Shown: positions 6,591-22,135 of the stretch, in pieces
How positions within the stretch are numbered: position 1 is the stretch's first letter
Layout: each line of letters opens with the position of its first letter
Source: a virus
Taxonomy: Duplodnaviria > Heunggongvirae > Uroviricota > Caudoviricetes
Virus record (IMG/VR): IMGVR_UViG_3300032038_000014
Location: 1-64,000 of that record
Reading direction: 5' to 3' (one strand)
DNA: 64,000 nt
Program-made: the position numbers and the translations under genes
Notes under the pieces: generated by a model
Told to the model about the DNA's origin: nothing
Databases searched by the model: none
The model's input: only the letters and a program-made list of their open reading frames with translations

Positions 6591-6610
6591 ATTTTTCCCT
6601 TTCTACTTAA

Positions 6611-6650
6611 TTAAAAAAGGGAGAAAGACTTAAAATAGTCTTTCTCCCCC
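6611..6650 (-). terminator. Rho-independent terminator downstream of the endolysin gene
   Basis: GGGAGAAAGACT ... AGTCTTTCTCCC stem at 6619-6648, followed on the minus strand by TTTTTTAA. Confidence 0.6.
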
Positions 6651-6658
6651 AATATGAA

Positions 6659-8654: not shown

Positions 8655-8683
8655 TTGATTTTTTATAAATATTATCATATAAT
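8655..8683 (+). promoter_or_regulatory. Sigma70-like promoter for the plus-strand accessory operon
   Basis: TTGATT at 8655-8660, 17 bp spacer, TATAAT at 8678-8683. It lies in a divergent intergenic region upstream of an AGGAGG RBS. Confidence 0.45.
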
Positions 8684-8717: not shown

Positions 8718-9590
8718 ATGCCAGTTAATGATGACTTAGGAAAAAGAATGAAAGAAAATTATGAGCAAGTTTCCAAAACTCGTTTGGTAAAAAGAATGCC
8801 AGTAGCAATTAGACTGGACGGAAAAGCCTTTCATACTTTTACAAAAGGTTTTCAAAAACCATTTGATCAAATTTTAATGAGAACTATGCAAGAAACCATG
8901 AAGTATCTTTGTGAGAATATTCAAGGCTGCGTATTTGGATATACACAATCTGATGAAATTACTCTCATTCTTAAAGATTACACAAAACTTGAAACTTCTG
9001 CATGGTTTGACTATGAAGTTCAAAAAATGTGTTCTGTGTCTGCTTCAATGGCAACTATGGCTTTTAATCACATCTTTTCTCAAAAGGTTGTAGATTATAA
9101 CAACGCTCTTTATGAAGCATGGAATATATCTAATGATGATATAAAATATTCAGACACTTTACTTAATGCAGCTCAAAAAGGAGCAATGTTTGATGCTCGT
9201 TGTTTCAACATTCCAAAAGAAGAAGTTGCTAATTTAATCTATTGGCGTCAAGTTGATGCAGTTAGAAATTCTATTCAAATGGTTGGGCAAGCTAACTTTT
9301 CACAAAAACAACTTCATGGAAAATCTTGTAATATGATTCAAGATATGCTTCTTCAAGAAAAAAATATTAATTGGAATCATTTTTCAACCGATTGTAAAAG
9401 AGGAAGTTGTTGCATTAAAAATCATTATAATATAGATGGAATTTCTCTCTTTAGACCTGGAAGATTCGGAGAATGGATTATTGACCGAAATATTCCAACA
9501 TTTAAAGGTGGAGATAGATATTATATCGAAAAATTCCTTAAATCTGATGATGAAAAAACTCAAGAAGAATTAAAAATGGGAATTGTATAA
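8718..9590 (+). CDS. Thg1-like protein (tRNA-His guanylyltransferase family; 3'-5' nucleotidyl addition / tRNA 5'-end repair)
   Basis: N-terminal KRMKENYEQ...PVAIRLDGKAFHTFTKGFQKPFDQ...MQETM matches the conserved Thg1/TLP core (KxMKxYE, vRlDGraFhkF, eKPnD). Strong AGGAGG RBS. Confidence 0.65.
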   Translation: MPVNDDLGKRMKENYEQVSKTRLVKRMPVAIRLDGKAFHTFTKGFQKPFDQILMRTMQETMKYLCENIQGCVFGYTQSDEITLILKDYTKLETSAWFDYEVQKMCSVSASMATMAFNHIFSQKVVDYNNALYEAWNISNDDIKYSDTLLNAAQKGAMFDARCFNIPKEEVANLIYWRQVDAVRNSIQMVGQANFSQKQLHGKSCNMIQDMLLQEKNINWNHFSTDCKRGSCCIKNHYNIDGISLFRPGRFGEWIIDRNIPTFKGGDRYYIEKFLKSDDEKTQEELKMGIV

Positions 9591-9811
9591 TGAAAACTAA
9601 AGAACAAATTGAAAAAGAAATCGGCTTTGGAGATTGTTTTACCGTCGATGAGTTTGCAGACTATGTAACAAAGGGTTATTTTAATCGTTATGATGGAGTC
9701 GGATATTTTCATGACGGAGAAAATCAAACTAGAATTAGTGTTTGGGCTGATGTCGATACAGTACTCGAAGCAAGAGATACTTATCCGTATGTAATGTGGT
9801 ATAACAAATAG
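9590..9811 (+). CDS. Hypothetical protein (73 aa)
   Basis: Start overlaps the stop of the Thg1-like gene (TAATG). Confidence 0.4.
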   Translation: MKTKEQIEKEIGFGDCFTVDEFADYVTKGYFNRYDGVGYFHDGENQTRISVWADVDTVLEARDTYPYVMWYNK

Positions 9812-9826
9812 AAGAAAGGAGTTATT

Positions 9827-10624
9827 ATGACAGTTCAAGATAGAGTAATAGATCATTTAGTAGAAGCATCTGATATGTTTGCTTCTGATAGAATAGTTGG
9901 AATATTCCTTCAAGGAAGCCAAAACTATGGTCTTGAATTGCCTACTTCTGATGTAGACACAAAACTCATAGTAACTCCTTCCTTTGAAGAAATAGCTCTT
10001 AATAAAAAACCTCGTAGCACAACTCATATACGAGCCAATAACGAACATACTGATATAAAAGATATAAGACTTTATATGGATACTTTCAAGAAACAGAATC
10101 TTAATTTCCTTGAAATATTATTTACTCCATATAAATCTGTTAATGTTATGTATGAAGATCAGTGGGATCGTCTTGTTACCAGAAAAGAAGATATAGCAAG
10201 AATGAATCCTTATAGAGCGGTAAAATCTATGAAGGGTATAGCTATGGAGAAATGGCATGCTATGGAGCATGAATATCCAAGTAAAGTTGATGTTCTCGCT
10301 AAATTCGGTTATGATCCGAAACAGCTTCATCATCTTCTTCGTGTTGAAGATTATATAGAACGCTATATAGCTGGAGAACCATATGCGGATTGCTTGCGGC
10401 CATCCGATCCTGGGTATCTCATGGACGTGAAAATCGGAGTATTAAATTTAGATCTTGCCCGTCGTATAGGCCAACGAGCAATTGATCATGTAATAGAAAT
10501 GGCAGATAATTTTTGTAATAATATTGAGCCAAGTGAAGATCCGGATTGCGTTGAACTTCTTCGCGATGTTCAAATGGAAATAATGAAAAGGTCAATAAAA
10601 AAGGAGATAGCACATGGGATATAA
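9827..10624 (+). CDS. Pol-beta-superfamily nucleotidyltransferase (RNA-repair-associated predicted NTase type)
   Basis: GS-x10-DVD motif (GSQNYGLELPTSDVDTKL) = hG[GS]x9-13Dh[DE]. ~265 aa with a helical C-terminal domain. GAAGGAG RBS. Confidence 0.55.
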   Translation: MTVQDRVIDHLVEASDMFASDRIVGIFLQGSQNYGLELPTSDVDTKLIVTPSFEEIALNKKPRSTTHIRANNEHTDIKDIRLYMDTFKKQNLNFLEILFTPYKSVNVMYEDQWDRLVTRKEDIARMNPYRAVKSMKGIAMEKWHAMEHEYPSKVDVLAKFGYDPKQLHHLLRVEDYIERYIAGEPYADCLRPSDPGYLMDVKIGVLNLDLARRIGQRAIDHVIEMADNFCNNIEPSEDPDCVELLRDVQMEIMKRSIKKEIAHGI

Positions 10625-11396
10625 TAAGTGGTATGTTTCCGGCGATACACATGCAAATTTTTCTCGGTTTCATGCTTTAAAAGAGGAGAAAGATATTGCA
10701 GTAATCGTTCTTGGAGATACTGCTCTTAATTGGAATCTTAATGAGCATGATACCAGCCTAAAAGCATCTCTCAGTAAACGCTGGCCTGAGATTACATGGT
10801 ACATCCTTCGTGGAAACCATGATGCAAGGCCATCCGCAGTCCAAAATATAAAAACAGATTGGGACGATGAAGTTCAAGGATATGTAATGTATGAGCCAAA
10901 TTTTCTCAATATTCGTTATCTACTGGATGGAGGTGAATATATTATAGATGGCTATTCTGTTCTTACTATTGGAGGGGCTTATTCAGTAGATAAATATTAT
11001 CGTCTTGAAAATGGTTTTAGATGGTTTTCTGATGAACAATTAACTGAAAAAGAAATGAGAAATATCGAAAACATTGTTCGTAGTAAAAACTATGACTTTG
11101 TTATGACTCATACTTGTCCATATTCTTGGCGTCCTGTAGATTTATTCCTATCTGGATTAGATCAATCAACAGTTGATAATACTATGGAATTATGGTTGGA
11201 AGGATTAAAAGATGCTTTTACTTGGAATATTTGGTTGTTTGGTCATTATCATGCAGATCGTCTTGAGCGTCCGCATGTAGAGCAGTACTTTAATACAATA
11301 GAAGAATTATCTACTATATGGAATCGTTGGAACGATGAAAGTCGAGAATTAGAATGGTGGATAAGAAAAGCTCCTAATTATTATATGGGTGCTTAA
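10614..11396 (+). CDS. Calcineurin-like metallophosphoesterase
   Basis: Motifs GDTHAN, GDTALN, RGNHD, GHYH. Confidence 0.65.
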   Translation: MGYNKWYVSGDTHANFSRFHALKEEKDIAVIVLGDTALNWNLNEHDTSLKASLSKRWPEITWYILRGNHDARPSAVQNIKTDWDDEVQGYVMYEPNFLNIRYLLDGGEYIIDGYSVLTIGGAYSVDKYYRLENGFRWFSDEQLTEKEMRNIENIVRSKNYDFVMTHTCPYSWRPVDLFLSGLDQSTVDNTMELWLEGLKDAFTWNIWLFGHYHADRLERPHVEQYFNTIEELSTIWNRWNDESRELEWWIRKAPNYYMGA

Positions 11397-11427
11397 AAAG
11401 GAAGGGTTGAAACCTTCCTTTTATTTA
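11396..11427 (+). terminator. Rho-independent terminator
   Basis: GGAAGGGTT gaa AACCTTCC stem followed by TTTTATTTATT; the T-run doubles as the upstream part of the next promoter. Confidence 0.6.
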
Positions 11428-11456
11428 TTGATTTTTTATTAAAAATTTGTTATAAT
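11428..11456 (+). promoter_or_regulatory. Sigma70-like promoter (TTGATT, 17 bp spacer, extended -10 TGTTATAAT)
   Basis: TTGATT at 11428-11433, TATAAT at 11451-11456. Confidence 0.5.
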
Positions 11457-11490
11457 AAATTATAAGAAAAAATTAAGGATAGAGATTTTT

Positions 11491-12279
11491 ATGAAATATT
11501 TTATTGACTTTGAAGCAACTCAGTTTTCTAACGAAATCATCTCGATTGGTTGCGTTAGAGAAAACGGAGATGAATTTTATTCATTAGTAAATCCAAAAAA
11601 GAAAATAACTGCTTTTATTACGGAGTTAACTGGTATTACAGATGAAATGCTCCAGACAGCTCCTACACCAGAGCAGGTTTTTAGTCAGTTTTTTGATTGG
11701 TGTGCAGAAGTCGAAGATGATTTACCTATTTTTTATTGCTATGGTAATTCAGATATTCATTTTGTACAAAAGAATTTTAGCAAGTCAAAGAATTTTAAAG
11801 CCAAGAATATTCTTGGGTATCTCTATTCCGATCTTTATGACTATGAGCCTATGGTCAGAAAGCATTTTGGTTTAATTCAAGCTGTAAGTTTAATTAAAGT
11901 TACTAATTATTACAAGCAGGAAGAAATAACTCAAAATCATAATGCTTTATCAGATGCTAAAATGTTAAAGTTTGTTTATGAACAGATACAAGAACACACT
12001 CCATCTGAAGATAGAGATGCTTTTCCAGAATATCAGAGTAAACAGACTCAGCCTCAGGAAGATTGGTCTAAATATACCGTTCATAGAATCAAAAAAGGAA
12101 AAATTGAAGAAACTTTTGTTGGCATGGATGCGGCCGTTGATTGGGTATTTAATCAGCTTCCAGATAATGGTGAAAAAGATAAAGTTATTCGTAAAAATTT
12201 AGCAAATAAGATTAAAAATTCTAGTAATACACGAAAGAAATATTTAACTTATCGTTGGAAAGTGGAAAAAAAGAAATAA
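11491..12279 (+). CDS. DEDD-family 3'-5' exonuclease (DnaQ/RNase T-like)
   Basis: Exo I motif FIDFEAT near the N-terminus, Exo II-like YGNSDIHF, Exo III-like HNALSDA. Confidence 0.6.
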   Translation: MKYFIDFEATQFSNEIISIGCVRENGDEFYSLVNPKKKITAFITELTGITDEMLQTAPTPEQVFSQFFDWCAEVEDDLPIFYCYGNSDIHFVQKNFSKSKNFKAKNILGYLYSDLYDYEPMVRKHFGLIQAVSLIKVTNYYKQEEITQNHNALSDAKMLKFVYEQIQEHTPSEDRDAFPEYQSKQTQPQEDWSKYTVHRIKKGKIEETFVGMDAAVDWVFNQLPDNGEKDKVIRKNLANKIKNSSNTRKKYLTYRWKVEKKK

Positions 12280-12302
12280 ATTATAGAAAGGAGAATTATT
12301 AA

Positions 12303-13742
12303 ATGAGTGAGCATGTAGGTTACATTGTAGAAGTTAAGCAGCTTCGTGAACACTCTAATGCAGATCGTATGCGTGTAGCAACTTTCTTCGGAAATGATAC
12401 TTGCGTAGATTTGAATGTTAAGATTGGTGATAAAGGAATTTATTTTCCAACTGACCTTCAGCTTTCTGTAGAGTTTTGTGAACAGAATAATCTCGTTCGT
12501 AAAAAGGACGAAAATGGAAACAACATTGGTGGATATATGGATCCTTCCAAGAGAAATGTTTCAACTATTAAGCTGCGTGGAGAAAAGTCTGATGGACTAT
12601 ATCTTCCAATTGAATGTCTTGCTTATACTGGAATTGATCTTAATTCCCTTTCTGTAGGAACTCCAATTGATGTAATTAATGCACATGAAATTTGTTGCAA
12701 ATATATCCCTCGTGGAAAAGTGCGTCATAGTAACAAGGAAGGTAATAGAACTCGTAAAAAGAAAGTTCCAGTAGCACCTCTATTTACAGAGCATGCAGAT
12801 ACAGAACAGCTTGCATATAATCTTGGAGAATTCCACCCTGGAGATCTTCTTGAAATCACTCTTAAAATGCACGGAACTTCACAGCGTACAGCATATGTTC
12901 CAGTTTTGAAAGGTTTTAAGAAAACTTTTTGGGAGAAAATCTGCGGGAAGCCAGGTCAGCCGATCTATGATTGGGGATATGTTTCTGGAACTCGTAGAAC
13001 TGTTCTTGACAACTTTGATGGTGGATTTTATGGATCTAATGACTTCCGTGAACCTCATTCTAAATTCTTTGAGGGAAAACTCCATAAGGGAGAAGAAGTA
13101 TATTATGAAGTAGTAGGTTTCCAGACTTCTGGAGCACCTATTATGGGATCTGCTGCAAACAAGAAAACTGCTGATAAGGAATTCATCAAACAGTATGGAG
13201 ATACAACTGTATTCTCTTATGGTTGCTCTCCAGAAGGATATAAGACAATGTATGGAAATGATGATATGGGAGCTTTTGAACTTCCAGTTGCTCTTCCTCA
13301 GTCTGATTTCTATGTATATAGAATGACTATGACAAATGAGGACGGGGATGTTATCGAATACACTCCAGAATATATGCGTTACCGTTGTGAGCAGATGGGA
13401 TGTAAAACAGTACCAGTTCTTGCAAAGGCATATGTTGATGAAAATTGTGTAGAAATTCTATGGGCTGCTAATCCTGCGGCCATCGATCATGCGATCACAT
13501 CAGCGGAGTCTCTTGGAGACGGAGTGCGTCAGGTAGCAGAATATTTCTACGATGGTCCAGATCCAGTTGGAAAGACTCATGTTCGTGAGGGTGTAGTTGT
13601 TAGAATTGTAAATAAACCAAAATTCTGTGCGTTTAAACATAAGAATTTCTACTTCAAGGCTCTTGAAGGAATCATAAAAGCAAGCGCTGAAGCACCAGAT
13701 ATGGAAGAAGCAGAAGAGGTTCTTAATGAAACAGCAGAATAA
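12303..13742 (+). CDS. ATP-dependent RNA ligase (Rnl2-like nucleotidyltransferase) fused to an N-terminal tRNA-binding OB-fold domain
   Basis: N-terminal VGYIVEVKQLREHSNADRMRVATF resembles EMAP/Trbp111-type tRNA-binding domains. KMHGTS matches the KxHGT(N) motif I of T4 Rnl2-type ligases. GC3-richer codon usage than neighbouring genes. Confidence 0.55.
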   Translation: MSEHVGYIVEVKQLREHSNADRMRVATFFGNDTCVDLNVKIGDKGIYFPTDLQLSVEFCEQNNLVRKKDENGNNIGGYMDPSKRNVSTIKLRGEKSDGLYLPIECLAYTGIDLNSLSVGTPIDVINAHEICCKYIPRGKVRHSNKEGNRTRKKKVPVAPLFTEHADTEQLAYNLGEFHPGDLLEITLKMHGTSQRTAYVPVLKGFKKTFWEKICGKPGQPIYDWGYVSGTRRTVLDNFDGGFYGSNDFREPHSKFFEGKLHKGEEVYYEVVGFQTSGAPIMGSAANKKTADKEFIKQYGDTTVFSYGCSPEGYKTMYGNDDMGAFELPVALPQSDFYVYRMTMTNEDGDVIEYTPEYMRYRCEQMGCKTVPVLAKAYVDENCVEILWAANPAAIDHAITSAESLGDGVRQVAEYFYDGPDPVGKTHVREGVVVRIVNKPKFCAFKHKNFYFKALEGIIKASAEAPDMEEAEEVLNETAE

Positions 13743-13920
13743 ACTTTGCCCCTATAGAAAAGAAATCATAGTAACTGATTATCACTGGGAGGGGAATACT
13801 CCTCTTCCAGGAGCTTACTATGAAAGTTTTGGAGAATGTTATGGTGAATTATGTGCGGCCTGGCTTGAAGATCATTTTACTGGTTTTGAAGGTTGTGCAT
13901 TAGCGAGGAAAATGAAATGA
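13726..13920 (+). CDS. Hypothetical Cys-rich small protein (64 aa) overlapping gene ends
   Basis: ORF overlaps the ligase stop and the NADAR start; uncertain whether it is translated. Confidence 0.3.
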   Translation: MKQQNKLCPYRKEIIVTDYHWEGNTPLPGAYYESFGECYGELCAAWLEDHFTGFEGCALARKMK

Positions 13921-14354
13921 ATAAAATAGATTGTTTTGATGGAGATTTTGCTTTTTTAAGTAACTTCTATCCTTCTCTTATTAAGGAGGATGGATTAGAG
14001 TATCCTACTGTGGAGCATTATTTTCAAGCAATGAAAACTAATGATATATATGGTCGAAGACTTGTAGCAGTAGCTAGTACTCCTGGTAAAGCAAAACGAA
14101 TCGGACGCAATCTTCGTTTACGCAGAGATTGGGAAAATGTGAAATATGATGTAATGAAACATGCTGTTCATGAAAAATTTCTTGATGCAACTCTACGTAA
14201 ACAACTTCTCTCTACTGGAGATGCATATCTTGAAGAAGGAAACACTTGGCATGATAATATATGGGGCAATTGTCATTGTGAAAAATGTAAAGATATTCAA
14301 GGTACAAATTGGTTAGGAACTATTCTGATGGAAGAACGAAAAAATTGTCAATAG
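13917..14354 (+). CDS. NADAR (YbiA/DUF1768) domain protein
   Basis: DGDFAFLSNFYPS...LEYPTVEHYFQAMK matches the NADAR signature (F-x-x-x-x-x-LSNFYP ... EH-x-FQ-x-x-K). Start chosen at ATG 13917 with a GAGGAAA RBS; the upstream TTG at 13893 is less likely. Confidence 0.65.
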   Translation: MNKIDCFDGDFAFLSNFYPSLIKEDGLEYPTVEHYFQAMKTNDIYGRRLVAVASTPGKAKRIGRNLRLRRDWENVKYDVMKHAVHEKFLDATLRKQLLSTGDAYLEEGNTWHDNIWGNCHCEKCKDIQGTNWLGTILMEERKNCQ

Positions 14355-14376
14355 GAGGGAGCTTAAAACCTCCTAT

Positions 14377-14404
14377 TGATTTTTTTATAAAATTTTGTTA
14401 TAAT
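14377..14404 (+). promoter_or_regulatory. Sigma70-like promoter overlapping the preceding terminator hairpin (14352-14376)
   Basis: TAGGAGGGAGCTTAAAACCTCCTA hairpin, then TTGATTTTTTT ... TTGTTATAAT. Confidence 0.5.
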
Positions 14405-14433
14405 ATATATGATAAAAAGAGAGAAAAAGAAAA

Positions 14434-15177
14434 ATGACATATACAACTAATATAACAGATGTTAATCCATATCATATTTGGATTGGTGATTATGGATTAA
14501 CAACAGATAATAAAACAACACAATTAGTAAATACTTATTTAAGCAATATTACTTATAAAGACCTCGAAGAAAAATTCGAGAGAAAGGAGTCAGATATAAT
14601 GAGTTTTGATTTTGGTAACATGTTTAATGGTATGTTCAAGCCTGTTGGACGTGGAATGTGTAAAATCGGAATGAATGGCAAGGTTGCTATTAAGACTTCT
14701 TCTGGTTACAAAACCTTTGACATTGATAAGAGAAAACTCGTTAACTGTGATAGTTTCGCTTTCGACATGGATGGTGCTTTTTGGGTAGTCCCAACATTTA
14801 AAGTCGAAAAGGGAGACATTATTCTCGTTAATGGAAAACCTCGTAGTGTCATTGAAGTAAAGGAAAATTCAATCAAAACTTTCTCTTATGAGGATAGTAC
14901 AATTGATGAAATTATTCCAGAACATCACGTCTTCCTTGGCAAAACTTACTGCTACGGCAAAATCTTCAGTCCTTTCATGAATATGGCTAAGGACAATGGA
15001 GAAGGTATGTCATCACTTATGAACATGATGATGATGAGTCAGATGTTTAGCGGAAACTCCAATGATGGAATGAATCCATTTATGATGATGATGCTTATGA
15101 ATGGAAATGATAACCCATTTGCAAATCTTTTTGAAGGAGCATTTAACTTTGGAGTAGATGAAGAAAGTGAGGGTTAA
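14434..15177 (+). CDS. Hypothetical protein with Met-rich low-complexity C-terminus (247 aa)
   Basis: C-terminal MNMMMMSQMF...PFMMMMLMNG tracts. 3 nt from the downstream vWA gene, so translational coupling is likely. Confidence 0.5.
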   Translation: MTYTTNITDVNPYHIWIGDYGLTTDNKTTQLVNTYLSNITYKDLEEKFERKESDIMSFDFGNMFNGMFKPVGRGMCKIGMNGKVAIKTSSGYKTFDIDKRKLVNCDSFAFDMDGAFWVVPTFKVEKGDIILVNGKPRSVIEVKENSIKTFSYEDSTIDEIIPEHHVFLGKTYCYGKIFSPFMNMAKDNGEGMSSLMNMMMMSQMFSGNSNDGMNPFMMMMLMNGNDNPFANLFEGAFNFGVDEESEG

Positions 15178-15179
15178 TT

Positions 15180-16064
15180 ATGGGAAGCGGAAGTTGGTCA
15201 AGTACGGTATATGATAGTTATACAACTGCAACAAAAGGAATGAGCACTGCTGCATATGCATCAGCAGTAAATCTTTCAACACAAGACATTTTCAAAAGCG
15301 TTAGCCTTCATAAGGATCTCAATCCAATGAATGTAATACGTGAGTGTTGCGATAGCGAGGAGCATCCAAACACTTTTCCAGTTATCCTCGCTCTTGATGT
15401 AACTGGAAGTATGGGCCAAGCCGCTATTAAAACTGCTCAGAAGCTCAATGATATTATGACTGATTTATATGCAGATAAAGATCTTCCAGATATTGAATTC
15501 TGCATTATGGGAATCGGAGATTGTTCTTGCGATAGATTTCCAATTCAAATTTCTCAGTTTGAATCTGATATTCGTATTGCTGAACAGCTTGACCAGATTT
15601 TCTTTGAATTTGGTGGTGGCGGAAATAAATACGAAAGCTATACTGCGGCTTGGTATATGGGGGCTAGACATTGTAAACTTGATTGCTGGGAGAGAGGTCA
15701 AAAAGGTTTAATTATTACCATGGGTGATGAACTTCCTAATCCTTATATTCCAATTAGAGGAATGAGAGATGGAGGCCTCAATGAGGTAACGGGTGATTCC
15801 CTTCAGGATGATATTGAAACTAAAGATCTTCTTCCAGAAGTACTTGAAAAGTTTAATGTATATCATCTTTCAATAGATGATTCAAGTTCGTCATATAGCT
15901 ATCATCAGAGACTTGGAATTGATGAAGAATGGACAGAGTTACTTGGAGACCATTACCAAGTATGCAATCTTGATAATCTCCCAAAAGTAATTACTGAAAT
16001 TGTTATAGCCAATAGCAAAGGAGGAGGAATTACTGTTAATTCTGATTCTGAAATAGTTTGGTAA
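15180..16064 (+). CDS. von Willebrand factor A (vWA) domain protein
   Basis: MIDAS motif D-x-T-G-S-M in VILALDVTGSMGQAA, downstream ITMGDE. Confidence 0.6.
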   Translation: MGSGSWSSTVYDSYTTATKGMSTAAYASAVNLSTQDIFKSVSLHKDLNPMNVIRECCDSEEHPNTFPVILALDVTGSMGQAAIKTAQKLNDIMTDLYADKDLPDIEFCIMGIGDCSCDRFPIQISQFESDIRIAEQLDQIFFEFGGGGNKYESYTAAWYMGARHCKLDCWERGQKGLIITMGDELPNPYIPIRGMRDGGLNEVTGDSLQDDIETKDLLPEVLEKFNVYHLSIDDSSSSYSYHQRLGIDEEWTELLGDHYQVCNLDNLPKVITEIVIANSKGGGITVNSDSEIVW

Positions 16065-16076
16065 GGAGGGTTTGCG

Positions 16077-17243
16077 ATGAAAGATATTAAGATTGTCATC
16101 GGCGCCAATTATGGTGATGAGGGTAAAGGATTAGTTACTAGGCACTTTGTTCGAGAAGCTAGTAATCCAATTGTTATACTTCATAATGGAACCGCACAGA
16201 GAGGACATACTGTTGATTATGGTCCAAACTGTCGCCATATATACCATCATTTTGGTAGCGGCACAGCTGACAATACACCTACCTTCTTCGCAGATACTTT
16301 CTGGATTCATCCAATGAGTTTTACTCTTGAGTGGAAAGAATTGGAATATAAAGGTGTTAAGGTACCTAGGTCTTTTGCAGATGATAAATGTAGAGTAGTT
16401 ACTCCATTTGATATGTTTGCAGACCATGCAACTGAAGCATATATTCAGTTAGAAAGAGGCGAACGAGAATTCGGTTCTTGCGGCCTAGGTACCTGGTGCG
16501 CGACGGATAGGTTTCCAGTTCATTCTTATTTGCTTAAATCTTGGTATAAAGCCGTACAAGGTTGTCTTAATAATCAAGAAGCATATTATGTTAGTTTAAT
16601 GGAACACTCTCTTGACGAGTGTTTAAAAGTATTAAAATCTCGTAAGGTTGATTTAGAAAAATTACCTACTTATAAAAGATATTTTGATAAAACAGATGGT
16701 CTTTTTAAATATCTGTGCAATAACTTTTTAAGAGATTTAATTTTCTTCTTTGGTCATTGTGAGCGTATTAGCTTTGATAATATTTATGATAGATATAACA
16801 CTTTAATTTTTGAAAATGGACAGGGTCTTGGTCTTGATATGGATGTCGACAATGATTGGCATACTACTTCGCATACGGGTTTGGTAAATCCTATGGCGTT
16901 ACTTGCGGGCAGGACCGATCCTCAAGTCGAGGTATGTTATGTTACACGCTCATATCTTACTCGTCATGGAGTAGGACCGTTAGAAGAAACGGTTAAAAAA
17001 ACAGAAATAAATGCAACAATGCATGATTTAACCAATGTACCAAATGAATTTCAGGGCACTCTTCGATATGGTTATCTAGATGATGTTGCACAAGCAGCTA
17101 GAATAGAAAAGGATTGGAATCTGGCCGCAGGTTTATCGAATTTTAAAAAGACAATGGCAGTAACTCATTGTAATGAGTTTGAGGATCTTTATCAGAAAGC
17201 AAATTATGTTAGTTATAATCCATATAGTATATTAAAACGGTAA
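16077..17243 (+). CDS. Adenylosuccinate synthetase family protein (PurA-like; PurZ-like candidate)
   Basis: N-terminal P-loop IVIGANYGDEGKGL (PurA GxxWGDEGKGK), GTAQRGHT (PurA GGHNAGHT), and GSCGLGTW in the GTTGRGIGP position. Shorter than bacterial PurA (388 aa). Confidence 0.65.
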   Translation: MKDIKIVIGANYGDEGKGLVTRHFVREASNPIVILHNGTAQRGHTVDYGPNCRHIYHHFGSGTADNTPTFFADTFWIHPMSFTLEWKELEYKGVKVPRSFADDKCRVVTPFDMFADHATEAYIQLERGEREFGSCGLGTWCATDRFPVHSYLLKSWYKAVQGCLNNQEAYYVSLMEHSLDECLKVLKSRKVDLEKLPTYKRYFDKTDGLFKYLCNNFLRDLIFFFGHCERISFDNIYDRYNTLIFENGQGLGLDMDVDNDWHTTSHTGLVNPMALLAGRTDPQVEVCYVTRSYLTRHGVGPLEETVKKTEINATMHDLTNVPNEFQGTLRYGYLDDVAQAARIEKDWNLAAGLSNFKKTMAVTHCNEFEDLYQKANYVSYNPYSILKR

Positions 17244-17281
17244 AATAAAATAATTGCTATCACTAGCAATTATTTTATTTA

Positions 17282-17310
17282 TTGATTTTTTTATAAAAAT
17301 ATATTATAAT
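17282..17310 (+). promoter_or_regulatory. Sigma70-like promoter after a terminator hairpin (17251-17274)
   Basis: ATAATTGCTATCACTAGCAATTAT hairpin; TTGATT at 17282-17287, 17 bp spacer, TATAAT at 17305-17310. Confidence 0.5.
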
Positions 17311-17359
17311 TATTATAGAAAATGAAAAATATGTAAAATAGAAAGAGGTGAGTTATTCT

Positions 17360-17740
17360 ATGAAAGATAAAAAAAGAAGAAAAGCACAAAGTAAAATTAA
17401 TAAAAGTGTAAGACTTCTTAATAAAAACATTCATGATGATTACCTTTGGCGTGGACGTTTTTATGTGCGTCAAACGGATGCTCATTGGGAACGTTTTGAA
17501 GATGGTTCTGGTGGAATTCTTACTGTATGGCTAGAAATTAGAGATAAAAAAACTGGCCGTTATATGGGATTTTCAGTAGATAATTATGCTTCTAGAGGTT
17601 GGAAACTTTTTGAAGCTGGAAATCAGTTTATTGCTGAATATTCTGGTGTATGGGATAATATTGATGCTGTAAAAGCAGATACAACAAATTGGGATAAAGT
17701 GGATTGGGTTCCAAAAGAAGAGATTTATTATAGGGGGTAA
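17360..17740 (+). CDS. Hypothetical protein (127 aa)
   Basis: ATG at 17360 with a GAAAGAGGTG RBS; the ORF-track GTG at 17348 is less likely. Confidence 0.45.
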   Translation: MKDKKRRKAQSKINKSVRLLNKNIHDDYLWRGRFYVRQTDAHWERFEDGSGGILTVWLEIRDKKTGRYMGFSVDNYASRGWKLFEAGNQFIAEYSGVWDNIDAVKADTTNWDKVDWVPKEEIYYRG

Positions 17741-17744
17741 TATT

Positions 17745-18479
17745 ATGGCAAAACATTATGCAATAGCAGATATTCATGGTATGTATGATATTTATACACA
17801 AGTATGTGATATGCTAGAGCCAGATGATGTCGTATATTTCCTTGGAGATGCTGGAGATCGTGGATATGATTGTTTCCGTTGTGTGAAAGAAATTTATGAG
17901 AATCCACAATGGATTTATATGAAAGGTAATCATGAAGATCTTATGGTTAAAGGACTTCGTGAACAAATGTATCATGGTCTTAAAGGAACTGAAGATTTTC
18001 AGCTTTGGCATTATAATGGTGGAGGAGCCACTTTTTATGATTGGGTAAATGATGGAGAAGATTGGACTTGGATAGAACGCCTTGATAGTTTACCAGTCCT
18101 TCTAGAATACACAAATCCAAAAGGAATCACTTTTCATATGAGCCATGCTGGTTATACCTGTGGTCATAAAGATGAAATGTGGAATGATGAATTAGTTTGG
18201 TCTAGAAATCATTTCGCAGATTCTTGGGACGGAGAATTTTATCCAAACGATATATGTATTCATGGTCATACTCCAATTGAATATCTAGTTAGAAAACTAA
18301 ACTGGCTCGAAAAAGGTACAAAACCTTATTATGTTGGACAACCAGAAGCAAGAAGTTATTGTAATGGACATAAGATTTGTATTGATAATGGAGTTTTTTA
18401 TACAAAATCAACTGTTTTATATGATTTAGATGAAATGGTAGCAATACCGCTATATAGCAATTCTGACTTTGAATGGTAG
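17745..18479 (+). CDS. PPP-family Ser/Thr phosphoprotein phosphatase (lambda-phosphatase / ApaH-like)
   Basis: GDIHG, GDAGDRGYD, GNHE motifs with the canonical spacing. Confidence 0.7.
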   Translation: MAKHYAIADIHGMYDIYTQVCDMLEPDDVVYFLGDAGDRGYDCFRCVKEIYENPQWIYMKGNHEDLMVKGLREQMYHGLKGTEDFQLWHYNGGGATFYDWVNDGEDWTWIERLDSLPVLLEYTNPKGITFHMSHAGYTCGHKDEMWNDELVWSRNHFADSWDGEFYPNDICIHGHTPIEYLVRKLNWLEKGTKPYYVGQPEARSYCNGHKICIDNGVFYTKSTVLYDLDEMVAIPLYSNSDFEW

Positions 18480-18488
18480 GAGGGAACC

Positions 18489-18773
18489 ATGGGAAGATCA
18501 AATGTAGAACAACATAAATTCTTTTGTATTCAGTGTGGGCAGGAGGGTATCCCACTAGCCCGCAAGAAAAATCGTAAGAGAGAGCGTTTTCATCGCAAAG
18601 TAATGTATTGTTATCATTGTCACGAAGATATTAATCATGTTGAATGTCGCGATGAAGAAGATATAAGAATTTTTAAAGAGAATTTTAGAAATGGGGTGTA
18701 TCAGAATGAGTGCAAAGAATCTTTGGATCATGTGCGGAATACCAGGCAGTGGCAAGTCAACTTGGTGCTCTAA
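18489..18773 (+). CDS. Zinc-ribbon protein (94 aa)
   Basis: CIQCG ... CYHCHEDINHVEC. Its 3' end overlaps the PNK gene by ~68 nt. Confidence 0.4.
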   Translation: MGRSNVEQHKFFCIQCGQEGIPLARKKNRKRERFHRKVMYCYHCHEDINHVECRDEEDIRIFKENFRNGVYQNECKESLDHVRNTRQWQVNLVL

Positions 18774-19209
18774 GGCTGCAAAAAAACCAGGAGCAATAAG
18801 AGTATCTCGTGACGTTATTCGTTTTAATATGCTTGAAGAAGATGAAGATTATTTTGCTCATGAGTTTGATGTATTTAGAGAATTTATTAAGCAGATTAAT
18901 GAAGGGTTAGCTGATGAAAAGGTTAAAGATATTTTTGTTGATGCAACTCATTTAAATGAAAAGTCTAGAAATAAGGTGCTTGATCGCCTTATTAATCTTG
19001 ATGGAGTAGCAATTAATGCGGTTAATTTCTTAATTGATTTCGATCTCGCGTGGGAAAGAAATAACTTGCGGAAAGGCCGCGCTGTGGTTCCATATGGTAA
19101 ACTTTGCGGTATGAATAAAATTTTCAATCCTGCAAAAGAAGGCGAAAAGTATCATTATGACAATATTATAAATATTAATGTTGCAAAGGACGGTGATGAA
19201 ATAGTATGA
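18706..19209 (+). CDS. Polynucleotide 5'-kinase (T4 Pnk-like P-loop kinase domain)
   Basis: IMCGIPGSGKSTW ... VSRDVIR parallels T4 Pnk TIGCPGSGKSTW ... NRDDYR. Start chosen at ATG 18706; the alternative is ATG 18691. Confidence 0.6.
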   Translation: MSAKNLWIMCGIPGSGKSTWCSKAAKKPGAIRVSRDVIRFNMLEEDEDYFAHEFDVFREFIKQINEGLADEKVKDIFVDATHLNEKSRNKVLDRLINLDGVAINAVNFLIDFDLAWERNNLRKGRAVVPYGKLCGMNKIFNPAKEGEKYHYDNIININVAKDGDEIV

Positions 19210-19760
19210 TATATGTAACTTCAGATTTGCATTTTTGTCATGATAGAGAATTTCTCTATAAGCCAAGAGGTTTTGACAATGTTTACGATATGAATAAAGC
19301 TATTGTTCAAAATTGGAATTCAATAGTACAGCCAGAAGATGATGTATATCTTCTTGGTGATATTATGTTGAATGATAATGAACTCGGTCGTAAACTGCTA
19401 TGCGATCTGAAAGGTAATATACATATTGTCATTGGAAATCATGATACAGATGCAAGAGTAGAAATTTACAATAACTGCTGGAATGTAGTAGAAATTGCTT
19501 ATGCTTTGAGATTGAAATATAGAAAACATACTTTCTTTCTTTCTCACTTCCCTTGTATGACCGCAAATCTTGAAAAAGAGTCTTTGCGTCAATGTACTTG
19601 CAATTTGTACGGACATACGCATCAAAGAACTAATTTTTATCAAGACATTCCATTTATGTATCATGTTGGAGTAGATTCTCATAATTGTACTCCAGTATCT
19701 ATGGATCAAGTCTTGTTAGATATGTATGCTAAAGCTGATGAATGTAAGAAACAGCTATGA
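19206..19760 (+). CDS. Calcineurin-like metallophosphoesterase (candidate 2',3'/3'-phosphatase partner of the kinase)
   Basis: SDLHF, GDIMLND, GNHD, GHTH motifs; translationally coupled to the kinase (ATGA overlap). Confidence 0.6.
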   Translation: MIYVTSDLHFCHDREFLYKPRGFDNVYDMNKAIVQNWNSIVQPEDDVYLLGDIMLNDNELGRKLLCDLKGNIHIVIGNHDTDARVEIYNNCWNVVEIAYALRLKYRKHTFFLSHFPCMTANLEKESLRQCTCNLYGHTHQRTNFYQDIPFMYHVGVDSHNCTPVSMDQVLLDMYAKADECKKQL

Positions 19761-19809
19761 CATAAATAAATAATTTTTACAACTTAATAAGAGAAAAAGG
19801 AGAAATTAG

Positions 19810-21201
19810 ATGAATTTTTTGACTAGTCATTTAACCCTAATTCCGATTGTTATAGTTGCCGTTTTGGTGATTATACTCCTAATTACAGGATATGTAAAAG
19901 CACCGCCTGATATGGCTTATATTATTTCAGGATTGCATAAAAAGCCTCGTATCCTTATAGGAAAAGCCGGAATTAAGATTCCATTCCTCGAGAGACTTGA
20001 TAAACTTTCTCTTGGAGCGATTCAGATTGATGTAAAAACTGGATCCGCCGTTCCAACAGCAGAGTATATCAATGTTAGAGTCGATTCGACGGTTTCAGTT
20101 CGAATTGGTCAAAGTCCAGAGATGATTACTCTTGCAGCACAAAACTTCTTAAATGTTGGAAGAGATGTAATTGCGGCCAAGGTCAATGATCTCCTCGAGG
20201 GTAACATTCGTGAGATTGTAGGCCAGATGAAACTGACAGAAATGGTAAGTGACCGAAAAGCATTTAGTGAAAAGGTACAAGAAAATGCTGTACCAGATCT
20301 TCAGCGCTTTGGTCTTGAACTAGTATCCTTCAATGTACAGAACTTCTCTGATGATAGTGATGTTATTAATAACCTCGGTATTGATAATGTATCACAGATT
20401 AGTAAGGCTGCAGCTATCGCTAAGTCTAATGCCGAACGAGAAGTTGAAGTTGCAAAAGCTGCCAATGCAAAGGCTGCGAATGATGCTAAAACGGACGCAG
20501 CAGAGCAGATTGCAATTCGAAATAATGACTTTGCAGTAAAGCAGGCAGAACTTCAGAAAATTGCTGATACACAGAAAGCACAGGCTGAAGCAGCTAAAGA
20601 TATTGAGGCAGAAAATCAGCGTAAAATTCGTGATGTTGCAGCAACAAATGCAGATATTGCGAAGGCTGAGCGTGAAGCAGATCTGAAACAAAAACAGATT
20701 GAACTGAAAGAGTATGAACTTGATGCTCTGGTTCGTAAGCAGGCTGATGCTGACAAATATGCTGCTGAACAGAAGGCTGCTGCAGATCTTATTCGTCGTC
20801 AGAAAGACGCAGAAGCTGCTGCATATGAAATTAAGCAGAAAGCAGATGCTCTAAAAGCAGAGGCTGAAGCTAAACGATTTGCAGCAGAGCAAGAGGCTGC
20901 AGGTATTGCCGCAGTTGGAGAAGCCGAAGCTACAGCCATTGAGAAAAAAGCAGAAGCACAGAAAAAGATGGGAGAGGCTTCAGTCCTCGACATGTATTTC
21001 CAGGTACTCCCAGAAATTGTTACCGCTGCTGCTCAACCTCTTGGCAATGTAGACGCAATCACTATGTATGGTGATGGAAATTCTACAAAACTCGTTAAGG
21101 ATGTTATGAATTCTACTAATCAAGTACTTGAGGCAATTAAGTCTACTACTGGAATTGATATTAACAATCTTATTAACGTAGTTTCTAAAACAAAAGAGTA
21201 A
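19810..21201 (+). CDS. SPFH/Band-7 (flotillin/YqiK-like) membrane protein
   Basis: N-terminal TM helix, PHB-domain core (ISGLHKKPRILIGKAGIKIPFLERL...), and a long Ala/Glu/Lys-rich flotillin-type coiled coil. Confidence 0.7.
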   Translation: MNFLTSHLTLIPIVIVAVLVIILLITGYVKAPPDMAYIISGLHKKPRILIGKAGIKIPFLERLDKLSLGAIQIDVKTGSAVPTAEYINVRVDSTVSVRIGQSPEMITLAAQNFLNVGRDVIAAKVNDLLEGNIREIVGQMKLTEMVSDRKAFSEKVQENAVPDLQRFGLELVSFNVQNFSDDSDVINNLGIDNVSQISKAAAIAKSNAEREVEVAKAANAKAANDAKTDAAEQIAIRNNDFAVKQAELQKIADTQKAQAEAAKDIEAENQRKIRDVAATNADIAKAEREADLKQKQIELKEYELDALVRKQADADKYAAEQKAAADLIRRQKDAEAAAYEIKQKADALKAEAEAKRFAAEQEAAGIAAVGEAEATAIEKKAEAQKKMGEASVLDMYFQVLPEIVTAAAQPLGNVDAITMYGDGNSTKLVKDVMNSTNQVLEAIKSTTGIDINNLINVVSKTKE

Positions 21202-21265
21202 AAATTAAAACTTAATTTAATATTTAGTTTAAAGCCTAGAAGTATTACTTCTGGGCTTATTGTCG

Positions 21266-21294
21266 TTGACTTATATTATTTTTTATGGTATAAT
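21266..21294 (+). promoter_or_regulatory. Consensus sigma70 promoter
   Basis: TTGACT at 21266-21271, 17 bp spacer, TATAAT at 21289-21294; preceded by the AGCCTAGAAGTA...TACTTCTGGGCT hairpin. Confidence 0.55.
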
Positions 21295-21316
21295 TAATCA
21301 ATGAAGGAGAGAACAT

Positions 21317-21400
21317 ATGATTATTAAACTATTTGGAGGCACCATAATTTCTATTTTATGGCTTGCCCTAATTATTTATGTAATTAATGGAGAAGAATAA
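21317..21400 (+). CDS. Putative 27-aa membrane micropeptide
   Basis: GAAGGAG RBS, then MIIKLFGGTIISILWLALIIYVINGEE; the stop overlaps the start of the next gene. Confidence 0.3.
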   Translation: MIIKLFGGTIISILWLALIIYVINGEE

Positions 21401-21841
21401 ATGAAAAATGAACCTATGTTTGAATGGGACCCAGAATCAGGTACAGCAACCTGTGTTTTAACAGATGGGCAAAATATTTTTTTAGGAATTGCTACATGCG
21501 GACCGGAGGATCGAGACATGATGAACGAGAAAACTGGTTGTCAAATTGCTATGCAGCGAGCCAAAATTGATTATTTAAAGCATATCCGAGATAATGAATT
21601 AAAACCACGATTATCTGCTTTAAAACAATTATATTATAGTATAAATAAAAGTAAACATTTTAATGAAAATGCTTATGAAACTAAAATGTTGTGTAGACAG
21701 ATATATCTGACTAAATCTGACTTAGATATGATTAAAGACGAAATAACTCAAACAAAGCAAGAATTAAAACTCTATCTTGAAGAAAAAGGTAAATTTTATC
21801 AGAGAATTAGAGAGCAACGCCAAAAGGACAAAAATAATTAA
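21401..21841 (+). CDS. Hypothetical protein (146 aa)
   Basis: ORF with an RBS; coiled-coil C-terminus. Confidence 0.45.
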   Translation: MKNEPMFEWDPESGTATCVLTDGQNIFLGIATCGPEDRDMMNEKTGCQIAMQRAKIDYLKHIRDNELKPRLSALKQLYYSINKSKHFNENAYETKMLCRQIYLTKSDLDMIKDEITQTKQELKLYLEEKGKFYQRIREQRQKDKNN

Positions 21842-21898
21842 AAAACTATCATTATTCTTCATATCCCAATAGGGAACCTTTTAAAAGGAGGGAAGAAT

Positions 21899-22135
21899 AT
21901 GATTCAATATTTCGTATTAGGAGTGTTAACAGTCTATATTGTACTTCCCATCATCGACTCAGTTCTTGGTATTATTCTTAGCTTATTAGAAGTTATTAAA
22001 GGGTTATTAGCTTTAAAAGTAGCAGATATTAATGCTAAAATAATAACCACAGAAGATCCTTATGCAACCCGCAATCCAATTGGGTTCTTAAGTCACATTG
22101 AAGAAGAAGCGGAGGAATATGATAGTGAAGCATAA
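21899..22135 (+). CDS. Small membrane protein (78 aa)
   Basis: AAGGAGGG RBS; one or two hydrophobic helices and an acidic tail. Confidence 0.45.
   Translation: MIQYFVLGVLTVYIVLPIIDSVLGIILSLLEVIKGLLALKVADINAKIITTEDPYATRNPIGFLSHIEEEAEEYDSEA

Follow-up and report, generated by a model that had tools for sequence, protein, structure and literature searches.

Does the 11-kb interval at positions 8718-19760 of this window (the whole stretch of 64 kb that was analysed, from a tailed phage) encode one tRNA-repair pathway, as an earlier note on its sequence had proposed, or a set of separable functions? We consider it probable that this is a modular early counter-defence region, with an RNA end-healing and sealing system as its core and lineage-specific additions around it, rather than one integrated 11-kb pathway; the interval would then form the first part of a rightward early region, driven by the host RNA polymerase, in a ~154-kb phage of gut Clostridia.

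Promoter-delimited units and an unrelated cassette

The span 8718-21201 consists of four units, each delimited by a promoter and a terminator. A sigma-A-type promoter-like site, TTGATT-17-TATAAT (8655..8683, plus strand), heads unit 1, and equivalent sites lie at 11428-11456, 14376-14404, 17282-17310, 21266-21294 and 24676-24704. The 64-kb window contains 18 copies of the pattern TTGA-N19-TATAAT, against 1.1 expected (pattern count); each intergenic gap of the island holds one copy, with a hairpin 5' of most copies. Because the same promoter type stands 5' of all four units and of the next unit downstream, the units are not divided into obviously different temporal classes. The downstream replication genes have this promoter too, on the same strand. 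All genes given below up to position 23369 are on the plus strand.

One unit falls outside RNA repair. It encodes a 247-aa protein (14434-15177), a vWA-fold protein with a MIDAS (15180-16064) and a divergent enzyme of the adenylosuccinate-synthetase (PurA) superfamily (16077-17243). These three genes travel alone in phages and Clostridia genomes; the cassette, about one third of the flagged region, is an independent passenger unrelated to RNA repair. With the 130-aa ORF that follows, it accounts for four genes (14434-17740, ~3.3 of the 11 kb) that the earlier note had left out and in which no test applied could detect an RNA-repair signature.

Genes for a proposed restoring, sealing and healing of RNA ends

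Unit 1 (8718-11396) opens with a Thg1-like protein of the TLP type, a 3'-5' template-dependent nucleotidyltransferase (8718..9590; PF04446 3.5e-31; phrog_4717 1e-86), whose nearest solved relative is a bacterial TLP, that of B. thuringiensis (BtTLP, 4KGK, 8e-60). Carboxylates D34, D79 and E80 can be read in its sequence, and the TLP-type 'WRQVDAVRNSI' replaces the eukaryotic HINNLYN motif. A 73-aa ORF (9590..9811; phrog_14149 2e-6), which overlaps the Thg1-like stop by 1 nt and is also among the called genes of the near-identical contig L050, leads to an RlaP-like nucleotidyltransferase (NTase) of the Pol-beta fold (9827..10624; phrog_388 4e-20). By its own sequence this protein is sub-threshold for PF10127/RlaP (19.3 bits, cutoff 23); 14 of 20 family members match RlaP (best 4e-7), and G30-S31, D42xD44 and D76/D79 are invariant in the family. 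Metallophosphoesterase 1 (MPE1, 10614..11396; PF00149 2.3e-10; phrog_1649) carries, on sequence reading, all five MPE motifs, including D11xH13, GD35, GNHD70 and GHYH, and weakly matches PdeM (TIGR04123), a ligase-associated DNA-damage phosphoesterase. RlaP enzymes add one or two nucleotides to damaged RNA 3' ends and restore the aminoacylation of over-trimmed tRNAs (PMC12776372). The NTase could similarly put back 1-2 nucleotides at a 3'-OH, the Thg1-like enzyme would refill base-paired 5'-truncated ends in the 3'-5' direction, and this restoring unit would also contribute a third phosphoesterase.

Unit 2 (11491-14354) starts with a DEDDh 3'-5' exonuclease that has a basic extension at its C terminus (11491..12279; PF00929 4.4e-18; Rv2179c-like 1.2e-7), which lies directly 5' of the ligase in seven related loci. 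It could serve DNA, since DnaQ/PolC proofreading models and phrog_192 ('DNA polymerase exonuclease subunit') match it as well. The ligase that follows (12303..13742; phrog_968 1e-63; TIGR02306 (DraRnl) 1.8e-11) is an ATP-dependent RNA ligase of the DraRnl/NgrRnl (Rnl5) type, composed of an N-terminal OB domain and a nucleotidyltransferase domain, with K188-x-H-G (motif I), E269 and K445xK447 invariant. Foldseek with its AF2 model (pLDDT 74.5) places NgrRnl (6VT4/5COT) on top at 2e-13 and T4 Rnl2 next, and the predicted OB domain taken alone resembles Trbp111/EMAP tRNA-binding domains. The ligase and its tRNA-binding-like OB domain had been recognised correctly in the earlier note; its label Rnl2-type needs correction, the architecture being that of Rnl5 and not of Rnl2 in the strict sense. 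A 64-aa Cys-rich ORF (13726..13920), called in L050 and with an equal-sized counterpart 3' of the ligase in two further loci, had no family match. The unit ends with a NADAR domain protein of the ADP-ribosyl N-glycohydrolase family (13917..14354, the start called in L050, with 13893 as alternative; PF08719 1.7e-25; phrog_1017 4e-41). In sealing, the exonuclease would trim 3' ends and the ligase would close the 3'-OH/5'-phosphate nick. Experiments have established NADAR as a guanine de-ADP-ribosylase that counters DarT1 (PMC11543638, PMC11257639, PMC11833690), not as an end-healing enzyme; here it may be a separate countermeasure that takes ADP-ribose off guanine in DNA or RNA.

The 'healing' unit (17348-21201) begins with the 130-aa ORF (17348..17740), which matches neither Pfam nor PHROG and has homologues 5' of the PPP gene in two loci. 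The PPP-family, lambda-phosphatase-like metallophosphoesterase (17745..18479; lambda phosphatase 1G5B 1.4e-10; phrog_246 6e-31) displays D9xH11, GD35xxDRG and GNHE64 and aligns with the phosphatase segment of the Pnkp-like kinase-phosphatase-ligase profile phrog_8238; both lambda phosphatase and CthPnkp can act as 2',3'-cyclic phosphodiesterases (PMC2190708). A 94-aa zinc-ribbon protein (18489..18773; phrog_1257 1e-9) overlaps the start of the kinase ORF, and its gene is directly 5' of the kinase in six related loci too. The kinase (18706..19209, alternative start 18691; PF13671 9.5e-18; phrog_505 2e-20) is a T4-Pnk-like 5'-OH polynucleotide kinase reduced to the kinase domain, with the P-loop GIPGSGKS and RD41xxR44, and it matches T4 Pnk (1LY1, 2e-5) and the CthPnkp kinase (4GP7, 1e-3). 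The ORF of metallophosphoesterase 2 (MPE2, 19206..19760; PF12850 3.6e-7; phrog_547 4e-43; 1XM7 1.5e-6) overlaps the kinase stop with its start. In related loci MPE2 invariably accompanies the standalone kinase, which it follows in the near clade. The kinase homologues of distant loci measure 300-340 aa and adjoin the ligase, and the one in Bacillus phage PBC2 is annotated as a polynucleotide kinase; judged from length and annotation only, MPE2 may take the place of the phosphatase half in a fusion of the Pnkp type. An SPFH/flotillin-like membrane protein (19810-21201) is the last gene of the unit, followed by a 146-aa ORF, a 78-aa ORF and a PIN-PhoH protein (22098-23369); this context (19810..23369) is kept in related loci and is syntenic with the kinase/MPE2 pair in six of them. 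In the proposed scheme the kinase would act on the 5'-OH, and the lambda-phosphatase-like and aq_1665-like binuclear metallophosphoesterases would open and strip the cyclic or 3'-phosphate. Three phosphoesterases exceed the need of one healing step, and some may act on other phosphorylated targets.

Profile, structure and motif checks upheld the families named in the earlier note, PF10127 staying sub-threshold as described: the Thg1-like polymerase, the Pol-beta-fold NTase, the DEDD exonuclease, the NADAR protein and the T4-Pnk-like kinase with its adjacent metallophosphoesterase were all recovered. Its list of two calcineurin-like phosphoesterases, a PPP phosphatase and an adjacent metallophosphoesterase makes four, which is too high, with three Metallophos-type enzymes in the interval; the PPP and the kinase-adjacent enzyme were rightly identified.

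Gene linkage and competing readings

Linkage was assessed in 40 non-redundant loci from IMG/VR that encode a related ligase, each fetched to within about 10 kb of that gene. At a distance of up to 5 kb from the ligase, 22 of them have the Pnk-like kinase and 19 the RlaP-like NTase; one or both occur anywhere in the fetched locus in 33/40, an association that exceeds chance, and only the ligase with kinase and/or RlaP recurs. Many phage lineages conserve ligase, kinase, phosphoesterase and RlaP-like NTase together. The modular character of the region is visible in relatives that have cREC, a sigma factor or DUF2828 in exchange, or are without Thg1, NADAR or the cassette. A Thg1-like gene and a related ligase are neighbours in 1/40 ligase loci and in 6/80 Thg1 loci, rates close to expectation for a 20-kb span in a ~150-kb genome if both are merely early-region genes, which we count against our own reading; a minority of lineages have it within the island, at three different positions by lineage.

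That all RNA-related genes of the 11 kb constitute one integrated pathway, rebuilding tRNAs 5' and 3' of the break, appears doubtful. The Thg1-like and RlaP enzymes would fill in, the exonuclease trim, the phosphatases and kinase heal and the ligase seal; every component is indeed present with intact motifs, a single promoter class serves all units, and the Thg1-like gene would share a transcript with RlaP and MPE1, in an order repeated in two other loci (L072, L098) and with different positions inside the island in three (L125, L128, L129). Against this, the region is divided into separate units of which one is the unrelated cassette, and NADAR has another established activity (PMC11543638, PMC11257639). 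Most ligase islands are without Thg1, and most Thg1 loci have no ligase, kinase or NTase nearby.

A role in phage DNA transactions is very improbable. The exonuclease would proofread or repair, in keeping with its DnaQ/PolC and phrog_192 matches, and the kinase, phosphoesterases and ligase would process 3'-phosphate/5'-OH nicks in DNA; T4 Pnkp acts on DNA too, MPE1 weakly resembles PdeM, and the replication genes come next on the same strand with the same promoter type, an adjacency that would reflect the DNA role. However, the phage already encodes an NAD-dependent DNA ligase (29860-31815), the nearest relatives of the ligase are RNA-specific nick sealers (PMC4408790), and RlaP and Thg1-like enzymes act on RNA (PMC12776372, PMC4820378). 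Also very improbable, in our view, is routine maturation or take-over of phage or host RNAs, for example of tRNA ends, instead of reversal of defence damage. Thg1-like proteins and DEDDh (RNase T-like) enzymes have cellular maturation roles, and the host-type promoters look constitutive, with the genes apparently expressed from them; yet the 64-kb window is without a tRNA gene or Rfam match, and patchy gene content that varies by lineage characterises conflict systems and not core maturation functions.

The modular counter-defence reading draws on family assignments, intact catalytic motifs, cross-lineage linkage and common promoters; from these we infer, as probable, the substrates, the order of steps, the early timing and the defence countered. 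The Rnl5-type ligases characterised so far act on nicks within duplex RNA and not on open anticodon loops (PMC4408790), so the real substrate may differ; we count this against the reading, together with the sub-threshold RlaP score and the DnaQ/PolC matches of the exonuclease.

Relation to known repair systems

The T4 system, Pnkp plus Rnl1, also from a lytic phage, combines a 5'-kinase, 3'/cyclic-phosphate removal and an ATP-dependent RNA ligase to reverse PrrC anticodon-nuclease damage. The same activities are represented here, and the kinase is a recognisable relative of T4 Pnk with the same P-loop and Asp/Arg motifs. It is nevertheless standalone, without the fused HAD phosphatase, whose role calcineurin-type metallophosphoesterases would take; the ligase, with its N-terminal OB domain, is of the Rnl5 and not the Rnl1 type, and an RlaP-like NTase, a TLP and a DEDDh exonuclease are extra. 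In Clostridium thermocellum Pnkp (with or without Hen1), kinase, binuclear metallophosphoesterase and ligase chemistry are likewise combined, and the PPP protein and kinase align with successive segments of phrog_8238, the latter matching 4GP7; here, however, the activities are on separate polypeptides, the ligase is of another family, and no Hen1 methyltransferase was found among the ORFs scanned (8718-23369). Deinococcus radiodurans DraRnl and Naegleria gruberi NgrRnl, the top matches of the ligase by sequence model and fold, share its domain architecture; identity is nonetheless 14-16%, the phage protein exceeds them by 140 residues, having insertions and an extended C terminus, and its 43.6 bits fall below the TIGR02306 equivalog cutoff of 151.

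RlaP RNA-repair operons (Burroughs & Aravind 2016, as cited in PMC12776372 and PMC7824862; biochemistry in PMC12776372) similarly join a GS...DxD...D Pol-beta NTase to an RNA ligase and a polynucleotide kinase, and their proposed role, as relayed there, is to give back nucleotides cut off by RloC-type 'smart' ribotoxins. The present NTase is from a divergent clade of phage proteins that scores under the Pfam RlaP threshold, and it accompanies a 5'-phosphate-dependent Rnl5-type ligase, whereas the characterised Pseudomonas enzymes are paired with RtcB/RtcA.

The earlier note had called the set far more complete than described phage systems, but such kits were already catalogued: comparative genomics of large phages lists RNA ligases, Pnk, calcineurin-like phosphatases, RlaP, a CCA-adding enzyme, Thg1 and PhoH-PIN (Iyer et al. 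2021, PMC7824862 section 3.4.9), and NADAR is found in early regions adjoining RNA-repair genes of phages, among NAD/ADPr systems (PMC9503650). The parts list is that of the jumbo-phage complements; this phage differs in its size, under the jumbo class, in the physical clustering of the parts in neighbouring operons that open the early region, and in a DEDDh exonuclease closely tied to the ligase and a split kinase/phosphoesterase pair. The RNA-mending gene cluster of this large gut-bacterial virus is real, but of a kit type already known from phage comparative genomics (PMC7824862, PMC9503650).

Genomic setting and organisation

Interval 8718-19760 is a + strand region directly to the right of a divergent junction. 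To the left of 8718 is a leftward lysis module with multi-domain endolysins at 3906-8299. These endolysin-like proteins (- strand; 894 and 546 aa) are very large, carry GH25, amidase and cell-wall-binding repeats, and would fit a Gram-positive host; a third protein with the phrog_14030 domain that they have in common is encoded in the early block, at 23416-24630. The rightward block starts with the interval and extends to about 54.7 kb, encoding further on a topoisomerase II, a NAD-dependent DNA ligase, a DnaB-type helicase, a primase, RecJ, a PolC/YorL-like polymerase, an anaerobic ribonucleotide reductase and a dUTPase. A 1606-aa ORF at 57158-61978 (- strand) has no PHROG match at E<=1e-5. 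The G+C content of the window is 30-37%. No tRNA or tmRNA gene and no Rfam family was found in the 64 kb, and the window therefore gives no support to a role in maturation of phage tRNAs. Among GenBank phages no near-identical DNA was found, and the closest isolates are similar at the protein level only (Enterococcus and SPbeta-like DNA polymerases, 38-41%; Bacillus phage RNA ligases, 47-48%). A 98%-identical ligase is present, in the same gene order, on contigs of 153,765 and 157,762 bp.

A promoter-like element, TTGAttttttt...TGnTATAAT, occurs in every intergenic gap of the region, mostly right after a hairpin. The window holds 18 copies against 1.1 expected, almost all of them intergenic and on the + strand and several 3' of hairpins (8655, 11428, 14376, 17282, 21266, 24676, 29792, 31804, 32043, 34601, 37108, 42288, 51965 and others). 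Because all gaps contain the element, we read the region as separate + strand units: 8718-11396 (Thg1-like gene, 73-aa ORF, nucleotidyltransferase, first metallophosphoesterase), 11491-14354 (DEDDh exonuclease, ligase, 64-aa ORF, NADAR), 14434-17243 (a three-gene cassette), 17348-21201 (130-aa ORF, PPP phosphatase, zinc ribbon, kinase, second metallophosphoesterase, SPFH protein) and 21401-24630 (including PIN-PhoH). The element divides the whole 46-kb rightward block into such short units. A common host-type promoter would fit early co-expression of the units; the element also lies upstream of the replication genes, and promoter type does not distinguish the island from them.

Predicted end-healing and sealing enzymes

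The gene cluster described in the earlier note is real, with minor errors: its ORF assignments were almost all borne out by sequence searches of Pfam, PHROG, NCBIfam and the PDB and by a single structure prediction. The ligase (12303-13742), which had been called Rnl2-type, is one of the exceptions. Among sequence models the DraRnl family fits it best (TIGR02306, residues 8-199; 43.6 bits, below the equivalog cutoff of 151), PF09414 scores 23.6 bits, below its cutoff of 27, and a Foldseek search with the AF2 model places NgrRnl of Naegleria on top (2e-13, across both domains) and T4 Rnl2 second; strictly speaking, it is not an Rnl2 ligase. The modelled architecture, with the OB domain at the N-terminus and the adenylyltransferase domain after it, is the one by which Rnl5 ligases (DraRnl/NgrRnl) are recognised; motif I (Kx(D/H)G in these ligases, here K188-M-H-G) is invariant, and the E and KxK motifs are intact. 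Taken alone, the OB domain resembles the tRNA-binding domains of Trbp111 and EMAP in Foldseek, which makes its earlier description as a tRNA-binding OB reasonable. NgrRnl seals 3'-OH/5'-PO4 nicks of duplexes with RNA as the 3'-OH strand (PMC4408790). Ligase matches are abundant in public protein collections (at least 8000 at E<=1e-10). One comparison locus, L047, encodes a 786-aa version (9998-12358) in which similarity to the query ends at residue ~240, suggesting an intein or a large insertion; a Thg1-like gene lies ~5 kb downstream of it.

The kinase (18706-19209) aligns with T4 Pnk at the P-loop (GxxGxGKS), with GIPGSGKST for G-CPGSGKST of T4, and at the RDxxR motif with its catalytic Asp and Arg, where SRD41VIR44 stands for NRDDYR of T4. 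T4 Pnkp is fused to a HAD 3'-phosphatase, whereas the window protein, at 167-172 aa, is a kinase domain only, and a metallophosphoesterase gene (19206-19760) lies 3' of it in place of the fused HAD domain. The homologue in more distant loci is longer (300-340 aa); in Bacillus phage PBC2 it is annotated as polynucleotide kinase and encoded directly 3' of the ligase. The clade closest to the window has the ~170-aa kinase followed by the metallophosphoesterase; this difference in length and annotation suggests that the phosphatase part of a Pnkp-type fusion gave way to a metallophosphoesterase. The kinase ORF (18691/18706-19209) overlaps a zinc-ribbon ORF (18489-18773) by 68-83 nt in a different frame. 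The overlap recurs in L006, L008, L009, L010 and L018, where the protein sequences of the two frames are both conserved, and is due either to genuine dual coding or to fusion by a +1 frameshift. On L050, a near-identical contig, the zinc-ribbon gene was missed by the gene caller.

The calcineurin-like binuclear metallophosphoesterases (10614-11396, 17745-18479 and 19206-19760) are indeed Metallophos-type proteins with intact motifs, although there are three genes and not the four claimed. All three match Pfam models above threshold and contain DxH, GD, GNH[DE], H and GHxH, and 17745-18479 adds the PPP-specific GDxxDRG. A PDB sequence search with the first of them returned no match. Lambda phosphatase and CthPnkp are known to have 2',3'-cyclic phosphodiesterase activity (PMC2190708). 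The motifs of the DEDDh exonuclease (11491-12279) are intact, and the NADAR protein (13917-14354) scores 90.6 bits with PF08719 against a cutoff of 35.1. NADAR enzymes take ADP-ribose off guanine in DNA and RNA, and phage NADARs neutralise DarTG1 (PMC11543638, PMC11257639, PMC11833690); their genes are found in early regions, adjoining RNA-repair functions (PMC9503650).

The nucleotidyltransferase (9827-10624) scores 19.3 bits with PF10127 (RlaP; E 1e-3), below the cutoff of 23, and 14 of 20 homologues match the family at E<=0.01 (best 4e-7). By these profile scores it is a divergent relative of RlaP, not a certified member. Its Pol-beta signature, hG[GS]...DxD with a third carboxylate (G30, S31, D42, D44, D76/D79), is invariant across the 20 homologues, and PDB sequence searches with the single sequence and with a profile gave no match. 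RlaP, which owes its name to an association with RNA ligases, extends damaged RNA 3' ends by one or two nucleotides and rescues aminoacylation of over-trimmed tRNA (PMC12776372).

How far these genes belong together can be judged from relatives. An IMG/VR scan with the ligase recovered 47 loci, in 40 clusters at 90% ligase identity. Among these 40 non-redundant loci, 22 have a Pnk-like kinase and 19 the nucleotidyltransferase within 5 kb of the ligase, and 33 have one or both in the fetched locus. The order nucleotidyltransferase, first metallophosphoesterase, DEDDh, ligase, NADAR, PPP, zinc ribbon, kinase, second metallophosphoesterase, SPFH, p146, PhoH is wholly or largely syntenic in L006 and L008 and partly so in L009, L010, L018 and L021; the Thg1-like gene and the cassette are absent from all six. 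In L052 and L053 (6111-7648), whose ligase is 73% identical, a cREC_REC protein, which we take to be a cyclic-phosphate-processing enzyme, and a different 316-aa metallophosphoesterase stand upstream of the DEDDh-ligase pair and seem to be alternative modules for end processing at that site; both loci also carry a sigma-70 family gene and a DUF2828 protein. The syntenic order and the exchanged genes thus indicate a conserved core with a modular periphery. An SPFH/flotillin-like membrane protein (19810-21201) is encoded 3' of the kinase-phosphoesterase pair, likewise in L006, L008, L021, L128, L129 and L135, and Fusobacterium phage Fnu1 (L001, 16389-17198) has a prohibitin-family gene two genes past its Thg1-like gene; SPFH proteins may be recurrently associated with these genes. 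PADLOC defence models gave no meaningful match on the unknown proteins, the cassette, the SPFH protein or the phosphatases.

The Thg1-like protein and the cassette

The Thg1-like protein (8718-9590) is firmly placed by PF04446, the model of the catalytic palm domain (108 bits, cutoff 29.2), and aligns over nearly its full length with BtTLP of B. thuringiensis (4KGK, 8e-60). Its carboxylates, D34 (RLDGKAFH) and D79-E80 (QSDEIT), match those of BtTLP in the alignment; in hThg1 the metal-binding carboxylates are D29, D76 and E77. Because the protein is nearer to bacterial TLPs than to eukaryotic Thg1 and has no HINNLYN motif, it is predicted to be of the TLP subtype, which would act in template-dependent 5'-end repair of truncated tRNA. 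About 12 of 80 viral loci with a Thg1-like gene (59-67% identity) contain at least two further island genes, and the gene sits upstream of the nucleotidyltransferase and first metallophosphoesterase in L066, L072 and L098, like in the window, between the PPP and kinase genes in L125, L128 and L129, and 4-10 kb downstream of a ligase-kinase pair in L047, L086 and L124. Recurrent juxtaposition at differing positions argues for a functional tie. The raw frequency, for its part, is close to what chance would give for a span of 20 kb in genomes of ~150 kb when both genes lie in the early region. The commonest neighbours of the Thg1-like genes in the 80 loci are mostly unannotatable proteins. We found nothing specific in the literature on an operon of Thg1-like, ligase and Pnk genes. 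A functional link is plausible, not established.

The earlier gene list passed over 14434-17740, most of which is the cassette (14434-17243). It encodes an unknown protein (~200 aa, Met-rich tail), a vWA protein and a PurA-like enzyme (16077-17243). The vWA protein (294 aa) has a predicted vWA/MIDAS fold (AF2 pLDDT 82.9) matched in Foldseek by integrin I-domains, TFIIH p44 and Ku80, with an invariant N-terminal MGxGSW and C-terminal Trp; its family profile found no match in the PDB. The 388-aa PurA-like protein is a divergent enzyme of the adenylosuccinate-synthetase superfamily. It retains PurA's P-loop Asp as well as its His and Gln, has ITHCNE in place of LTKLD, the GTP-specificity (N/T)KxD motif, and lacks the C-terminal ~100 residues. 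Two more specific identities were rejected. In PurZ, of the 2-aminoadenine pathway of Z-genomes, the catalytic Asp of PurA is changed to Ser; here GDEGKG is kept, the score with NF038379 is 19.3 bits (cutoff 300), and no PurZ structure is among the PDB matches. As a housekeeping PurA the protein falls equally short, at 61 bits with TIGR00184 against an equivalog cutoff of 395.

The trio is fixed in 78-80 of 80 viral loci (L135-L214). The vWA family also has 383 matching stretches in bacterial genomes, almost all of gut or rumen Clostridia, and of the 80 of these that were fetched (L217-L296) 71-80 have the complete trio and 60 a Nudix + NrtR-winged-helix gene 3' of it, a gene that none of the viral loci examined carries. 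In the bacterial loci the neighbouring genes on either side are unrelated. The cassette is independent of RNA repair and points to a Lachnospiraceae-type host, and the NrtR link together with the adjoining NADAR suggests NAD/ADP-ribose or purine-nucleotide chemistry. We found nothing specific in the literature on a vWA/PurA-like/NrtR cassette; as an uncharacterised and very widespread set of genes it offers a lead of its own. The RNA-repair reading is right for the core and was over-extended to the whole 11 kb.

Predicted pathway and significance

Family assignments and linkage are observed; from them we infer a heal-restore-seal scheme. The kinase would phosphorylate 5'-OH ends, and the PPP phosphatase, the second metallophosphoesterase or both would take off 2',3'-cyclic or 3'-phosphates. 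Lost nucleotides would be restored on the 3' side by the nucleotidyltransferase and, templated, on the 5' side by the TLP; DEDDh would shorten 3' ends, and the Rnl5-type ligase would do the final sealing. MenT/AbiEii-type toxins extend tRNA 3' ends and CapRel-type toxins pyrophosphorylate them; more speculatively, the exonuclease and nucleotidyltransferase could counter the former and the phosphoesterases the latter. Bolder still, and in our estimate rather unlikely, is a two-sided tRNA reconstruction by the Thg1-like protein, nucleotidyltransferase, DEDDh and OB-fused ligase, with the cassette forming, separately, an undescribed nucleotide/NAD-linked pathway that could be common to gut Clostridia and their phages. 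The targets of reconstruction might be tRNAs from which a cut has cost nucleotides on its two sides, or acceptor ends shortened or extended by toxins. If true, a viral 3'-5' polymerase would have its first demonstrated biological role, and phage RNA repair would go further than simple heal-and-seal.

Experimental proof that phages repair defence-inflicted RNA damage comes mainly from T4, richer phage kits being so far comparative-genomic predictions, and we know of no reconstituted phage system of this composition. The claim that the set is far more complete than described phage systems holds against the experimentally studied ones only, and not against the large-phage RNA repair complements of Iyer et al. 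2021 (PMC7824862, section 3.4.9), which comprise RNA ligases, Pnk, HAD, calcineurin-like and HD phosphatases, RlaP, a CCA-adding enzyme, sporadic Thg1 and PIN-PhoH. Given such catalogues and biochemistry, the concept is known from comparative genomics and some of the parts from biochemistry. The cluster is compact, well delimited and abundant, and since each predicted step has a small protein of its own, with its motifs intact, it is convenient for in vitro reconstitution. It could reveal the purpose of viral Thg1-like enzymes and of ligase-coupled DEDDh exonucleases, and also which tRNA-targeting defences are at work in gut Clostridia.
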